Below, one piece after another: positions 4,471 to 39,108 of a DNA stretch of 64,000 nucleotides. A program made the position numbers and the translations under genes. Location: sequence record PX393109.1; one strand, written 5' to 3'. Position 1 is the first letter of the stretch; each line of letters opens with the position of its first letter. Source of the stretch: a phage. The notes under the pieces were generated by a model. It was not told the origin of the DNA. It saw nothing but the letters and a program-made list of their open reading frames with translations, and made no database searches.

Positions 4471-4560
4471 TTTTATTTTTCAAATAATGAAAAATAAAAC
4501 GATTTATGAGCCGTCTTTAAGCCCGTTCTTTTGGGTGGCGGGGCGTTCCCGCTGCGGCTC
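4471..4560 (+). promoter_or_regulatory. class B conserved intergenic element (TTTTTCAAATAA...AAAGCCCGTTCTTTTGGGTGGGGCG + GC-rich segment)
   Basis: One of 6 near-identical elements; upstream of small gene 4581..4823 with leader TAATTTGGGATAAAATC-ATG. Confidence 0.55.
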
Positions 4561-4580
4561 TTCTAATTTGGGATAAAATC

Positions 4581-4823
4581 ATGGCTATAATCAAAAGTTC
4601 ACGTGGTGGTGCTGTTCTGGTTGCAATCGCTAACTCTGCTGAAATTCAGCACACCCCAGGCCTCGATACAAAGTTCAATGTTCACTTCTCTAGCCAAATC
4701 GGTGGTTATGACTCCAGCTTCAATACCCTGTTCGAAGCGGTTATGGAATGCGCTAAGTTTTCCTGCAAATTTGATGCAGAAGAAGTGGCCGAGTTCCTGA
4801 AAGTCACAGGGGAAGCTGCATAA
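4581..4823 (+). CDS. hypothetical small protein (80 aa)
   Basis: ATG preceded by class B element and GGGAT SD-like leader. Confidence 0.5.
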   Translation: MAIIKSSRGGAVLVAIANSAEIQHTPGLDTKFNVHFSSQIGGYDSSFNTLFEAVMECAKFSCKFDAEEVAEFLKVTGEAA

Positions 4824-5086
4824 TGGTTAAGCTTCTCGAAGTCACTAAATTCAATACGGTGGTGGTTATGTCGGTAAACCTGAAATGCGCCATTGTATAT
4901 TACCCTAACCAGGATCAGTACGAAGTGGTTAAGGAGCCCATGAAGGAAGCTCGTGTGGTTATGTCGACCGAATCTGGTCGCTTCGCCAGGGAAATGGCTA
5001 AGGAGTTGGACTCCTTCTTTAATGGAACTCTGGATGAGTTCTTTGAGCTGTCTGGTTGGTACGCTCTTCCAGAACCGCTCCTTTGA
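4823..5086 (+). CDS. hypothetical protein (87 aa)
   Basis: ORF with ATGG overlap to upstream stop; class A motif overlaps its 3' end. Confidence 0.45.
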   Translation: MVKLLEVTKFNTVVVMSVNLKCAIVYYPNQDQYEVVKEPMKEARVVMSTESGRFAREMAKELDSFFNGTLDEFFELSGWYALPEPLL

Positions 5087-5110
5087 GCCCTCCAAAGGCT
5101 GTTAAACTGT
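5075..5110 (+). promoter_or_regulatory. class A conserved promoter-like motif (CCGCTCTTT-N~9-AAAGGCTGTTAA-RNTGT), copy 1
   Basis: Motif recurs 16 times, always + strand and 25-90 nt upstream of a start codon. Confidence 0.6.
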
Positions 5111-5141
5111 GCGAGCTTATTTAAACCTGACCGGAGAAACT

Positions 5142-7127
5142 ATGTCAGAACATGCTATTGAAATCACAAGATTGCGTTACCCTGATAACGTTCGTCAGAA
5201 CGTGTCGATGTATCTGGGCGACCCGATTAACTACACTCATCCTCTCCAGGAAATAATCAATAACGCGGAGGATGAGCTGCTTAATGGTCATGCCAACCTG
5301 GTGCAGATCATTAACCGTGAATCCTATAAATTGGTTACCGACAACGGTCGCGGCATTCCTATCTACGCTGATCCGGAAGATCCGACTAAGTCAATCCTGT
5401 TCTCTACTGTAACAGATCTTCACGCAGGTTCCAAGCTGGGTGATAACCGCGAAATCACTTCCGGTACTCACGGTGTAGGTAGCTCTGCTGTTAACGCAGT
5501 GTCTGAGCGCTTTATCGTGATTCGCCGTGTTATGCAGGGTGATAAGGCACACATCCCTATGGAGCCTGGTCAGTTCTACGTGCTTGGCTTCCGTCGTGGT
5601 ATCATGCAGATTGATGCCGTAATCAATGATCTGAACGATCTTCACGATGACGGTATTCCGGATGAAGTGCTGGAGACCTTAAAGGCTACTGACTTCTCTA
5701 CAGCAGTCTTCCTGGTTCCTGATGCTACTCTGTACCGCAGCATCTGGTCTGATGTGGACACGGTTCCTCTGAAGATCTCCCTGATTGGTCGAGATGCCAC
5801 TATCACCGTAAATGGTGAAGCTCTGGCTACCTGGGACTTCCGTGCGGATGTTGCCGAAAATGAGAAGCTGTTCCTGGACTCTACTGTTAAGTATGAGTTC
5901 TCGTTCAACGATCGTCTGACATTCTCCGGAGAGCTGGGCTATTCTGATAAGAATATGTCTTACTCCCACGTGGACATGATCAACTTGATCAATAACCCGC
6001 ATGGTGGTCTGCATGAGAAATTGGTCACGAGAGCGCTCGGCGGCATGCTGAATAAAATCAACTCGGCCATCACTGTTGGTGATGCTAAGCTGGGTCTGAT
6101 CGTGTTCACTAACGTCTTCTCCAGCTACCGTACTGCATTCTCCTCCCAGACTAAGGAGAAGCTGACTGGTCTCGGTATGTCCTGGAGCGACTGGGAAATC
6201 TATGCCAAGAATCAGCTGATGCTGGATGATGAGCAGATCAATGATTACGACTATTATGGCGAGTACTTCTTCTATGAGAAAGAATGCCTTAGTCAGCTCA
6301 CATTCTACTTCAGCCTGGTTTATGAGCAGAATAAGCAGTTCTTCGATGCTCTGATTGCCAAGATCCTGGCTTACAAAGCCAGCCTGAATAAACTCTCCAA
6401 CATGGACTTCATTAAATCCAAGCTGGTGATGGGTGACGATCATCGTAAGGCCGCTATGGACGGAGACATGGCGAAGATCTACGAATCTCCGTCTGACCGC
6501 TGGGATCTTCGTGAACTGTTCATCACAGAGGGTCCGTCTGCTTCGGGTAACATCATCAAACTGCGTAACGAGTATCAGTCGGTGCTTCCGCTCCGTGGTA
6601 AGATGCGTAACTCGGCTTCCATGGATATTATGGAGTTCGTGAATAACCCAGAACTGCTGGCGATCATTAACACTATCGGCTGCGGCATGGGTTCTATGTT
6701 CGACCTGGATAAAGCACGCTACGGTAAGGTCATCATTATGACTGACCTGGATGTGGATGGTCAGCACATCAGTAATCTCATCAGTTCAATCTTCCTCATC
6801 CATGCTCCTGAGCTGGTTAAGGATGGTCGTCTGTATAAACTCGAAGCTCCGTTCTATGTGGTCAAGAACGGTAAGAAGACCGAGTTCTACTACGCCGATG
6901 AGAAGGATAAGATCGACTTCGATAAGTCCTATGTCGAACGTCGTAAGGGTCTCGGTTCCTACACAGAGGAAGAGACTGAGCAGTTCATCGTGAATGCGAA
7001 GACTCGCCGTCTTATCCAGGTCACCTACGATGATAACGAAGAGCATCTCGATGCCGCTCGTAAATTGTTGTACTCATCTCGTGCTCGTCGCCAACTGTTA
7101 GAAGACTACGGTCTGTTTAAGGAGTAA
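5142..7127 (+). CDS. type II DNA topoisomerase large subunit (GyrB-like ATPase + Toprim; T4 gp39-like)
   Basis: GHKL ATPase boxes (NNAEDE, DNGRGIP, GTHGVGSS) and Toprim LRGK...YGKVIIMTDLDVDGQHI. Start moved to ATG 5142 (track start 5109 is GTG). Confidence 0.8.
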   Translation: MSEHAIEITRLRYPDNVRQNVSMYLGDPINYTHPLQEIINNAEDELLNGHANLVQIINRESYKLVTDNGRGIPIYADPEDPTKSILFSTVTDLHAGSKLGDNREITSGTHGVGSSAVNAVSERFIVIRRVMQGDKAHIPMEPGQFYVLGFRRGIMQIDAVINDLNDLHDDGIPDEVLETLKATDFSTAVFLVPDATLYRSIWSDVDTVPLKISLIGRDATITVNGEALATWDFRADVAENEKLFLDSTVKYEFSFNDRLTFSGELGYSDKNMSYSHVDMINLINNPHGGLHEKLVTRALGGMLNKINSAITVGDAKLGLIVFTNVFSSYRTAFSSQTKEKLTGLGMSWSDWEIYAKNQLMLDDEQINDYDYYGEYFFYEKECLSQLTFYFSLVYEQNKQFFDALIAKILAYKASLNKLSNMDFIKSKLVMGDDHRKAAMDGDMAKIYESPSDRWDLRELFITEGPSASGNIIKLRNEYQSVLPLRGKMRNSASMDIMEFVNNPELLAIINTIGCGMGSMFDLDKARYGKVIIMTDLDVDGQHISNLISSIFLIHAPELVKDGRLYKLEAPFYVVKNGKKTEFYYADEKDKIDFDKSYVERRKGLGSYTEEETEQFIVNAKTRRLIQVTYDDNEEHLDAARKLLYSSRARRQLLEDYGLFKE

Positions 7128-38048: not shown

Positions 38049-38055
38049 GGTAATT

Positions 38056-38262
38056 ATGGGATATAAGCTCTTTGAAACTAAGGAGCAGGAGGAGCGCTTC
38101 CTGAAGATGATTCGGGAAGGCTCCGCCATGAATACTCCTCGCAGTCCTGACGATCCTGGGTATAGAAGTGGGTGTAAGTCTATTACCCAGGAATTCAGTT
38201 CAACAGTCTACCGCTCGCAACATCCTTACGTGAGCGGAGGCAACTTAACTAAGGTCCGCTAA
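38056..38262 (+). CDS. hypothetical protein (68 aa)
   Basis: ATG after GAGGTAATT. Confidence 0.4.
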   Translation: MGYKLFETKEQEERFLKMIREGSAMNTPRSPDDPGYRSGCKSITQEFSSTVYRSQHPYVSGGNLTKVR

Positions 38263-38337
38263 TGGAATGGGTAAGAGCATTGATGGTCATGAGTAGGCTA
38301 AAGCCTATCTGCCCAGATGACATAATCCGGACTCGTG

Positions 38338-38790
38338 ATGGATTGGTTATGTACCGTCAGGGTCACTTATCTGACCAGGATAAATCTGAAATCGGAATCT
38401 ATAGGTTCACTGATGGCTTTTAAATTAATGGACAGAACCAAGATCCTGCATACCGCTGTAGAGAATGGTGGTTATGAATGCCGTACAGATAATAATTCTG
38501 TGAACATGGCAAACATCTCTACCTGCCTTAAGCTGGTGAGTGAAGGATTACTCTTCCACGGAACCACTGAACAGGATGCATATGACAAGCAGGTTAAGTG
38601 GTTCCATCCGACTCTTACTGGTATCTTAGTCGATACCCAGGAGAAACTGGCTTACCTCATTAATCGGGATAAGCCTCTATCTAAGAGGAAGTCTGAGATC
38701 CTGAATGCTAAACGTATTCTGGAAGATAAGCCTAACCTCGCATCTGTATTAAACGAAGATATCTTAAAATTAATTAGGGATTATAAATAA
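38338..38790 (+). CDS. hypothetical protein (~150 aa; start uncertain)
   Basis: ORF; alternative start ATG 38413. Confidence 0.4.
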   Translation: MDWLCTVRVTYLTRINLKSESIGSLMAFKLMDRTKILHTAVENGGYECRTDNNSVNMANISTCLKLVSEGLLFHGTTEQDAYDKQVKWFHPTLTGILVDTQEKLAYLINRDKPLSKRKSEILNAKRILEDKPNLASVLNEDILKLIRDYK

Positions 38791-39032
38791 TGGCCATTCT
38801 GGTATTCGCCAAAGATCAACGGCAGTATAACGACTACATCCGTGCCAAGCACCTTACTCGCTCTGATGCTGTCTACGCCAGCTGTGTTAATAAGCTACGT
38901 GGTCTATTTCCTAAGCCTACTGAGATGCACTTGCTGCCTAATTGGGATCATAGTGGACCATCCCAGATGGCTATGGAAAAGGCTAAGACTCTCTTTCCAC
39001 AAGCAGTAGAGAAGTCTATCGAGCAGTGGTAA
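38790..39032 (+). CDS. hypothetical protein (80 aa)
   Basis: Overlapping start TAATGG. Confidence 0.4.
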   Translation: MAILVFAKDQRQYNDYIRAKHLTRSDAVYASCVNKLRGLFPKPTEMHLLPNWDHSGPSQMAMEKAKTLFPQAVEKSIEQW

Positions 39033-39108
39033 AATTATTTTTCAAATAAACGAATTATGAACGGGTTTAAAGCCCGTTCTTTTGGGTGGGGCGGCTCCGG
39101 CGGCTCCA
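39031..39108 (+). promoter_or_regulatory. class B conserved intergenic element, copy 6 (contains inverted repeat GAACGGGTTT/AAAGCCCGTTC and direct repeat GGCGGCTCC x2)
   Basis: AAAATTATTTTTCAAATAAACGAATTATGAACGGGTTTAAAGCCCGTTCTTTTGGGTGGGGCGGCTCCGGCGGCTCC; TATAAT 19 nt before ATG. Confidence 0.55.

Follow-up and report, generated by a model that had tools for sequence, protein, structure and literature searches.

A 64,000-nucleotide stretch of DNA from an Escherichia coli phage (sequence record PX393109.1), hereafter called the window, carries six copies of an intergenic element of about 100 bases that we refer to as class B. To judge by its sequence, the element is real, functional-looking and conserved, and it is probably a second class of phage-specific promoter, beside a family called class A, with a hairpin at the beginning of the transcript. 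The copies sit ahead of the phage RNA polymerase genes and other early or middle genes. There were exactly six copies in the window, all on the + strand and each directly 5' of a start codon (4581, 27000, 27373, 30825, 35643 and 39147), in agreement with an original prediction made from the letters of the window. A distinct promoter class was among the readings offered there, and it is the one that best fits the two boxes of the element, their invariant spacing, the co-orientation with genes, the terminator context, the frame common with class A and the conservation in distant relatives.

Class B has two boxes at a fixed distance

The motif, its geometry, orientation and conservation, and the sense-strand bias of its hairpin can be read off the sequence. 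The parts follow one another in the order AT-rich arm, box CGAnnTnTG, variable spacer of fixed length, core AAAGCCCGTTCTTTTGGG, GC-rich hairpin beginning at the G run, and U-rich leader with a ribosome-binding site. Alignment of the six copies, which had been proposed as a check, gave the two-box consensus ATTTTATTTTTCAAATAAACGAttTtTGAaC..c.tAAAGCCCGTTCTTTTGGGTGGGGCGG, followed by the GC stem, TCTAATTTGGAG and the ATG, with CGA exactly 20 nucleotides (nt) before AGCCCGTT in all six. The AT-rich arm and the GC hairpin of the original description were both present; the similar leader that it placed before each gene was found in part, TCTAATTTGG being present in only four of the six copies. Over 31 copies from eight genomes, including orthologues and distant relatives, CGA, T.TG, AGC..GTTC and TG.G were invariant, and the 9 to 11 nt between the boxes were free in sequence and fixed in length.

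The 25-mer AAAGCCCGTTCTTTTGGGTGGGGCG matched at 30759 and 39069 with no mismatch, at 26934 with one and at 4518 with three, and shuffled sequences gave no match. The copies at 27292 and 35572 were more diverged and still had AGCCCGTT, which was found in all six copies and at a single coding site, 39904. When the boxes were written as the expression CGA-N2-T-N-TG-N11-AGC-N2-GTT, the matches in the window were exactly the six class B sites; the whole 111-kb genome of Escherichia phage EP_H11 also had six, and the - strand gave none in either sequence. The window is 94 to 97% identical to EP_H11 and to Escherichia phage vB_EcoM_IME392 (IME392; 116 kb), and all six copies are present at orthologous sites in both. 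In a BLAST search against 50,697 phage records, the element was found in these two phages only; it is unannotated in IME392 and lies beneath the coding sequence of a hypothetical protein in EP_H11. A search of the whole window with Rfam covariance models at gathering thresholds was negative, as was one of 26800-39200 at E ≤1. Scans of IMG/VR were empty, both with the core as a DNA pattern and with the C-terminal part of the phage RNA polymerase β' subunit (β'-C) as a peptide. The same sequence on two Joint Genome Institute (JGI) metagenome contigs, GTCCTAAAGCCCGTTCTTCTGGGAGGGG (a shared 23-mer) with a hairpin (L012, 1680-1702; L013, 327-349), was taken as probably a chance match because the contig is 52% GC and has no protein similarity to the phage.

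A GC-rich hairpin directly follows the core

The hairpin lies directly 3' of TTTTGG, with the G run as its 5' arm, a stem of 7 to 10 bp in most of the six copies and a folding energy of -14 to -19 kcal/mol. Each sequence was folded separately, with shuffles, the complementary strand and class A as controls. The first 25 nt of the hairpin region were 77% GC, compared with 45% for the genome and 43% for the regions downstream of class A, which folded at -6.3 kcal/mol (z, -0.58). Over the 17 copies of the three E. coli phages, the + strand folded at -16.1 kcal/mol and its complement at -10.4 kcal/mol, because of G.U pairs. Among 47 class B-type copies from 10 genomes, the hairpin began 0 to 4 nt past TG in most, and the sense strand was again the more stable (-12.1 versus -8.5 kcal/mol; Wilcoxon test, 4e-8). 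The stem was kept when orthologues changed in sequence: in IME392, copy 2 has G.U replaced by A-U and U-A by U.G, copy 4 has C-G replaced by U.G, and copy 6 has U replaced by C, and in the EP_H11 orthologue of copy 5 both arms are changed. The loops differ between copies (GTTGG, GGTC, TCAAGG, GCGTT, TCCG and CGTTT). The GC hairpin is clearly a sense-strand RNA feature at the predicted transcript start, and to this extent an earlier idea, that of an RNA stability element, was partly right.

The G tracts had also been described as capable of forming a G-quadruplex. No copy has four of them; each has two or three runs of G3 or longer, the G run being the 5' arm of the hairpin, and a search for four runs of at least three G spaced 1 to 7 nt apart found no canonical motif anywhere in the window. 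An intrinsic (rho-independent) terminator was rejected as well, as the hairpin is followed not by a U run but by tails such as GGTTCATT, TGGATAAT and GAATGATC. A longer hairpin between the CGA box and the core (copy 2; GAACGGG/CCCGTTC in copy 6) was discarded because the orthologues do not keep the pairing, and the spacer is altered without compensation in the EP_H11 and IME392 orthologues of class B.

Class A and class B share a frame

With all intergenic regions listed, the class A consensus was CCGCTCTTTTnAnnnnTCGAAAGGCTGTTAAAnTGT, which can also be written CCGCTC-N17-GCTGTTAAAGTGT or CCGCTCTTTT-N9-AAAGGCTGTTAAAnTGT. The window has 16 class A copies on the + strand, with AAAGG starting at 5094, 8444, 9285, 11626, 13365, 15501, 17357, 20941, 24542, 34826, 40583, 46619, 51688, 53085, 55804 and 56879; that strand carries nearly all window genes as far as about 60.5 kb. 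EP_H11 has 24 copies, all on the + strand and confined to the block for replication and nucleotide metabolism, with none in the - strand structural block. For the frame common to both classes, AAAGnCnGTTnnnnTG, the counts were 20 in the window and 27 in EP_H11; every occurrence was on the + strand, and the structural block again had none. When the classes are aligned on AAAG (AAAGGCTGTTAAAGTG against AAAGCCCGTTCTTTTG), their upstream boxes coincide (CCGC versus ACGA), and the gap between the box hexamers is 17 nt in both. Class A differs from class B in its box letters, has no UP-like arm (described below) and does not always have a hairpin.

The original prediction had aligned the classes in another register, on a common YTCTTTTNGGG core. 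That core is absent from class B, and the literal pattern matches only two class A sites, at 15485 and 40567. CTCTTTT of class A (CTCTTTTAGGG) belongs to the upstream box, whereas GTTCTTTTGGG of class B is the downstream box. The earlier register was probably coincidental, because these two boxes, class A CTCTTTTAGGG and class B GTTCTTTTGGG, evolve independently in relatives.

The placement of class A bears on its function. In EP_H11, the first + strand gene (97488) is preceded by a divergent junction of 193 bp that contains one copy, and the equivalent junction of the Acinetobacter phage Ab1 has a degenerate copy of the corresponding motif (class 1). Three other EP_H11 copies, at 99117, 99299 and 101001, precede segments of an unannotated tRNA/noncoding stretch, and class A is therefore not a translation signal. 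From these two placements, class A must include a promoter. In some copies the Shine-Dalgarno (SD) sequence begins 2 to 5 nt past TGT, so the start must lie about there, 7 to 8 nt past GTT, the distance expected of a -10 element. The noncoding stretch itself (EP_H11 99.1-101.6 kb) comprises about 2.4 kb of unannotated DNA with several tRNA-like genes and GC-rich structured sequence.

At 34826-34875 of the window, the class A core also forms one side, the 5' arm, of a stem that resembles a terminator (AGGCTGTTAAC...GTTAACAGCCT, with ATTTTTATTT next), and the same was seen at 13367-13389. This arrangement is conserved in a 73%-identity relative (L011, 4407-4455). The stem would form in RNA reading through the site; transcripts that start at the promoter would be missing its 5' arm. 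A hairpin with a T run was also found 3' of class A at 11626, 17357 and 24542.

Geometry and position are conserved in distant relatives

Relatives were gathered through homologues of β'-C. The clade includes IME392, EP_H11, Acinetobacter phages Ab1 and 3098, RP13 and several metagenomic contigs. Contigs L014 (85% identity in β'-C), L020 (79% in a 487-amino-acid [aa] protein) and L011 (73% in a 251-aa protein) have the class B-type motif as in the window. In L015 and L016 (58 to 59%) it reads ACGAAnTTTGGGA-N7-AAAGCGAGTTCTTTTGkG with a hairpin, the AT arms are similar (AAAATAATTTTCTAAATAACGAA), and the class A core is unchanged. Ab1-TPeters and L017 (Acinetobacter type; 49 to 50%) have a class 2 motif, CCTGTTTCTTAA-N9-AAAACCTGTTAAgTTGT with a GGGCGGG..CCCGC hairpin, and a class 1 motif in which a variable hairpin is followed by CAAAAGCTGTTTAAAGTGT. 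L018 (45%) has an AT arm and a diverged core, L019 (44%) has GGGCGCTTAsA-N7-AAAGCCAGTTAArGTG with a hairpin, and RP13 (35%) has a two-box motif of its own, AACGAC(G/T)CTAT-N9-cAGACCTTGTa.

Class B and class 2 share their gene positions, namely after SbcCD and before topoisomerase II, before the β'-C operon, before PolX, and before the protein preceding the N-terminal part of β' (β'-N). In Ab1, the counterpart of copy 1 lies at 7860, between an SbcCD-like gene and topoisomerase II, and that of copy 6 at 65069, before the PolX homologue; elements syntenic with copy 4 were found in L011, L014, L015, L016 and Ab1 (62164). The conservation whose absence would have refuted the original prediction holds both at the orthologous sites in EP_H11 and IME392 and in distant relatives; at 44 to 59% β'-C identity, these still have two classes, and neither the spacing nor the hairpin nor the gene positions are lost. 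The letters of the box drift by lineage, from GCCCGTT to GCGAGTT, GCCAGTT and ACCTGTT. Conserved geometry and position with lineage-specific letters is the pattern to be expected of promoters that co-evolve with a phage-encoded specificity determinant.

A promoter model for class B

In the model that we favor, the early and middle (+ strand) genes are transcribed by an RNA polymerase that probably includes the phage's own bacterial-type β' and that would recognize class B in the form of duplex DNA. The A/T-tract arm, at about -57 to -41, would act as an UP (upstream)-like element. The -35-like box, (A)CGAwnTnTG, would be followed by a 17-bp-type spacer of free sequence and fixed length, by a -10-like box within AAAGCCCGTTC and by TTTTGG, and initiation would take place in the G run, at about the first G of GGGTGGGG. 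The transcript would then begin with the GC-rich stem-loop, which would shield its 5' end from 5'-end-dependent decay, and the U-rich leader and SD sequence would come after it. Presumably, what separates the two classes is promoter strength or the use of different specificity factors or activators.

This model is supported by the strict co-orientation with genes, the invariant two-box spacing and the frame common with class A, and by the position of copies 1 and 2 (two of the six) directly behind terminator-like hairpins with T runs. What is generally expected of phage promoters, a conserved and oriented motif before transcription units that co-varies with the phage lineage, was found for class B. 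No other conserved candidate promoter was present in the intergenic spaces that hold it, which measure 107 to 153 nt.

The AT arm was compared with the UP-element consensus (in full, nnAAAWWTWTTTTnnAAAAnnn). With AAAWWTWTTTTNNAAAA and up to two mismatches, there were nine matches against 0.84 expected, all of them in class B arms, in four of the six copies. With the match at the canonical -57 to -41, +1 would be within the G run (30778 and 39088), the CGA box near -35 and GTTCTT between about -12 and -7. The position of the UP-like arm is consistent with the promoter model and is not proof of it, because A/T tracts score easily.

Class B did not resemble a sigma-70 promoter. Sites were scored as TTGACA-like and TATAAT-like hexamers separated by 16 to 18 bp, A being required at -11 and T at -7. 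Over 26000-40000, no + strand site fell inside the five class B copies located there (copy 1 is outside this range). Sigma-70-like matches were rarer than in shuffled sequences, with 14 versus 25.5 over 26000-40000 and 31 versus 40.5 over 42000-61000. A TATAAT-like hexamer near the ribosome-binding site had been pointed out in several copies; the exact hexamer occurs in two of the six only (26981 and 39123) and has no -35 partner. As a -10 element, TCTAAT or TATAAT at this place was rejected since the start would fall inside the SD sequence. An extracytoplasmic function (ECF)-type promoter (GAAC...CGTT) was rejected because the spacing is 12 or 23 nt and not about 16, and a sigma-32-like one because the spacer is too short. 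The class II pause/termination signal of T7 (ATCTGTT) did not fit either, class A having only CTGTT in common with it and class B having CCGTT.

The phage encodes a split β' subunit

The open reading frame (ORF) at 31596-33164 encodes the N part of β'. It is 31% identical to E. coli RpoC over residues 20 to 514, gave an E value of 3e-51 against solved E. coli β', and has kept the catalytic motif NMDVDGD (DxDGD). The C part is encoded at 28502-30016 and aligns to RpoC residues 570 to 990; the identity of the split β' to RpoC is 27 to 31%. A bacterial-like β' with its catalytic motif makes a bacterial-type promoter geometry plausible. Searches of the complete EP_H11 and Ab1 genomes by tblastn with E. 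coli RpoB, RpoA and RpoD (E ≤10) found no β, α or sigma-70. Profiles of the conserved 487-aa and 230-aa families gave no sigma-like or β match among PDB sequences, and the AlphaFold model of the 487-aa protein (pLDDT, 55) was too poor for a fold search. No RNA polymerase other than β' was matched by Pfam or PHROGs among the ORFs tested, and the ORFs of about 900 aa or more in a + strand context were an SbcC-like protein and DNA polymerase only. Either the missing subunits are too diverged to be seen, or the phage β' works with host subunits.

A more speculative idea, to which we give a low probability, is that of a hybrid polymerase in which the split phage β' would take the place of host β' in a core of host β, α2 and ω, directed by an unrecognized phage specificity factor. 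Such an enzyme would account for the -35/17/-10 geometry, for the UP-like arms, through contacts of the host α C-terminal domain, and for the lack of β, α and sigma genes. Hypermodified thymines in the T-rich boxes could help to confine it to phage DNA. If it existed, a host/phage hybrid polymerase would represent a novel viral strategy for taking over transcription in bacteria.

A protein of 220 to 230 aa is always encoded 3' of β'-C (30025-30717 in the window), with homologues in L014 to L016, L018, L019 and RP13. It was considered as a sigma-like factor and rejected; its ..IITDPPF.. motif is typical of motif IV of N-methyltransferases, and the protein looks methyltransferase-like.

Alternative explanations

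Instead of being a promoter, class B could serve in the processing or stability of long polycistronic RNA. Host RNase E or a nuclease of the phage would cut in the AU-rich arm or in the core, and the hairpin would then protect the 5' end of the mRNA downstream or form the 3' end of the one upstream. An AU-rich single-stranded arm next to a stable hairpin is the classic context of RNase E, the hairpin is clearly a feature of the sense RNA, some class A and Ab1 cores are arms of RNA hairpins, and no sigma-like factor was identified among the ORFs tested with Pfam and PHROGs. Nevertheless, we consider processing unlikely. The preference of RNase E is loose and would not impose two boxes at fixed spacing around a free spacer over 31 copies; copies 1 and 2 stand behind terminator-like structures; class A occurs at a divergent junction, where no upstream sense transcript is expected; and without the two classes the + strand block, with its under-represented sigma-70-like sites, would have no recognizable promoters. 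Quite improbable, in our view, is that the core and hairpin, transcribed from a promoter in the AT arm, work in cis as an RNA of the lambda nut (boxA plus boxB) or HK022 put type, which modifies polymerase or prevents termination and so lets polymerase pass the many intrinsic terminators. The boxA consensus is CGCTCTTTA, or TGCTCTTTAACAA in rrn operons. CGTTCTTTT of the class B core is partly boxA-like, CGCTCTTT(T)A of the class A upstream box especially so; as in nut and rrn leaders, a T-rich CGYTCTTT-like box is followed by a hairpin near the operon start; several class A copies have a hairpin and T run 3' of them; and β' is bacterial-like. The conserved loop that marks boxB is lacking, however, and relatives have other letters in place of the T-rich ones (GTTAAAGTG in L019, GTTAAGTTG in Ab1, ACGACGCTAT in RP13), a drift unexpected for a conserved host Nus target if boxA is similar across hosts. 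Nor are there conserved promoter-like hexamers in the AT arm upstream of the boxes, and the boxA-like sequence of class A lies upstream of its conserved core. Mimicry of boxA/Nus, attractive for class A (CGCTCTTTT), was rejected for the same lack of conservation of the box across relatives.

The conserved boxes might also be operators for a phage DNA-binding regulator of a subset of operons, with a weakly conserved promoter elsewhere in the intergenic region. The arms contain A/T palindromes (TTATTT-TTC-AAATAA and AAAAATAAAACGTTTTATTTTT), the CGA box and core have short inverted complementarity (AACG/CGTT, GAAC/GTTC), and the element is found on six operons only. We see a very small chance for this explanation: the two invariant boxes are asymmetric and share their frame with the 16 to 23 class A copies, the intergenic spaces offered no second conserved candidate for the promoter, and the fixed place of the hairpin beside the core would not be explained. 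All three alternatives account less well than a promoter does for the two-box geometry, the class A frame and the positional evidence.

Several points weigh against the promoter model. The start site and the reading at the level of DNA are deduced from the sequence, and so are the polymerase or factor involved, the UP function and the stabilizing role. UP-like matches are expected of any A/T-tract DNA. The folding statistics come from related, nonindependent copies, and RNAalifold found no common column-wise structure in a MAFFT alignment of 26 hairpin regions, because the stems stand in different registers. The core has weak complementarity to the region upstream of it (GAAC/GTTC; 7 bp in copy 6), and some class A and Ab1 cores pair with sequence 3' of them, so that portions of the element can be active in read-through RNA as well. 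The enzyme is not defined by the gene content: Pfam gave no β, α or sigma on every sizeable ORF tested, and Pfam with PHROGs gave no sigma-like or β subunit on the neighboring ORFs and 37 further proteins. If class B needs the phage β', another source must first transcribe the β' operons that bear class B themselves; either a pre-existing enzyme (host or virion delivered) reads class B there, or another promoter primes these operons. Finally, the thymines of the phage are probably hypermodified, which could alter promoter recognition. Two papers place these phages beside YerA41, RP13 and SP-15, in a group that has a family A DNA polymerase fused to uracil-DNA glycosylase and probably hypermodified thymine, and a 5-hydroxymethyldeoxyuridine (5-hmdU) DNA kinase domain is present in EP_H11.

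Comparison with known systems

Bacillus phage SPO1 (gp28 and gp33/34; hydroxymethyluracil [hmU] DNA) and the middle and late genes of T4 use a host-type RNA polymerase with phage sigma-like factors. As in these phages, there are several classes of promoter, here putative, with phage-specific hexamers in the bacterial -35/spacer/-10 geometry, the classes are tied to gene modules, and thymine is replaced or modified (here probably). Unlike in SPO1 and T4, the box sequences are unrelated to theirs, no sigma-like gene was found, and the phage supplies β' rather than (only) sigma. Like E. coli rrnB P1-type promoters, class B combines an UP-consensus A/T arm, at about -57 to -41, with G+C-rich sequence near its start, here a predicted one. 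It differs from them in that its hexamers are not sigma-70-like and that the G+C-rich stretch, a discriminator in rrnB P1, is here a predicted RNA hairpin after the start. A stable hairpin a few nucleotides from the 5' end, here a predicted end, is likewise found in the E. coli ompA and T7 φ10 leaders; the class B hairpin is free in sequence and fixed in position relative to the proposed +1.

The early promoters of the jumbo phages phiKZ and AR9 are AT-rich motifs of about 10 nt, centered at -10, and are read by virion polymerases built from phage β and β' pieces (PMC7598289). As in these phages, a bioinformatically findable motif stands upstream of early operons and the phage has multisubunit-type polymerase genes of its own. 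Unlike their single AT-rich element, class B has two boxes, spans about 36 nt and contains GC, and the β' of the present phage is much closer to bacterial RpoC (E value, 3e-51). Instead of two β/β' sets, the whole genomes of EP_H11 and Ab1 have one split β', and no β was found in them.

No paper on the promoters or transcriptomes of IME392, EP_H11 or their relatives was found in the literature, nor any in vitro data on them. The two promoter-like classes provide a testable map of transcription units in an almost unstudied clade, and class B, which marks the operons encoding the phage β', offers an entry point for asking which enzyme starts the program. Compact (about 60 to 100 bp), apparently insulated by terminator, promoter and 5' hairpin, and orthogonal to sigma-70, class B could serve as a source of parts once its cognate factor is identified.

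Individual copies and neighboring features

All copies and the hairpins next to them are on the + strand. Copy 1 (4467-4580) has its AT arm at 4467-4499, box CGATTTATG at 4500-4508, core AAGCCCGTTCTTTTGGG at 4519-4535, hairpin at 4535-4555 and a leader with TCTAATTTGGG at 4562-4572, before the ATG at 4581. Directly 5' of it, a terminator-like hairpin read from the sequence, ATGGGGTCTTCGGACCCCAT with a T run, occupies 4437-4461. In place of the leader TCTAATTTGGG, EP_H11 has a (CTT)7 microsatellite (2290-2330, equivalent to window 4556-4580), and the downstream start differs, which suggests that the first small gene after copy 1 is variable. Copy 2 (26870-26999) consists of the AT arm (26870-26915), box CGAACTTTG (26916-26924), core (26933-26951) and hairpin GTGGGGCGGGTTGGCCGCTTCAC (26951-26973), with the ATG at 27000; the terminator-like hairpin TAGGCCAAGGATGGCCTA with TTTTTC directly 5' of it (26852-26875) is conserved in contig L020. 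Copy 3 (27240-27372), the most diverged, has its arm at 27240-27271, box CGAAGTCTG at 27272-27280, core CACAGCCCGTTAACTTGGG at 27289-27307, hairpin GGCGGGGCGTTTCCCCGCC at 27307-27325 and a second hairpin at about 27333-27352, before the ATG at 27373.

Copy 4 (30718-30824) has an AT arm at 30718-30740 with an UP-consensus match at 30721-30737, box CGATTTTTG at 30741-30749, core at 30758-30776, hairpin at 30773-30800 and the leader TCTAATTTGGAG; the ATG at 30825 opens the gene for the 251-aa protein, and β'-N (31596-33164) comes next. In copy 5 (35530-35642), the AT palindrome AAAAATAAAACGTTTTATTTTT extends from the last codons of the upstream ORF to 35543; box CGATTTTTG lies at 35552-35560, the core at 35569-35587, the hairpin at 35584-35615 and the ATG at 35643. 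Copy 6 (39033-39146) comprises the AT arm (39033-39050) with an UP-consensus match (39031-39047), box CGAATTATG (39051-39059), core (39068-39086), hairpin (39083-39113) and leader TCTAATTTTGGAG; its ATG, at 39147, begins a run of small genes followed by PolX (39788-40561).

The operons headed by class B include the RNA polymerase β' genes, topoisomerase II and PolX. The earlier suggestion that the element marks highly expressed small proteins is not supported, since the downstream units include the 251-aa protein followed by β'-N and the operon with β'-C. The gene after copy 4 differs among the window, IME392 and L011, and the operon of copy 4 also encodes RNase H (33164-33694) and a protein with an Acb1-like domain (33956-34480), directed against the cyclic oligonucleotide-based antiphage signaling system (CBASS).

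Terminator-like hairpins with a GC stem, a CTTCGG loop and a T run were found at 757-812, 4437-4461, 8390-8420, 35937-35960 and 43160-43190, a uniform set that punctuates the + strand block. The replication/modification block also contains a full-length homologue of BCCT (betaine/carnitine/choline) transporters at 10236-11618 (Pfam E value, 4e-92), an unusual cargo for a lytic phage that may be linked to precursor supply for base modification. On the - strand of EP_H11, two intergenic regions, at about 90.2 kb and 67.0 kb, have TAGTCAGG in common 5' of two structural genes, and this sequence may be a late-promoter element.

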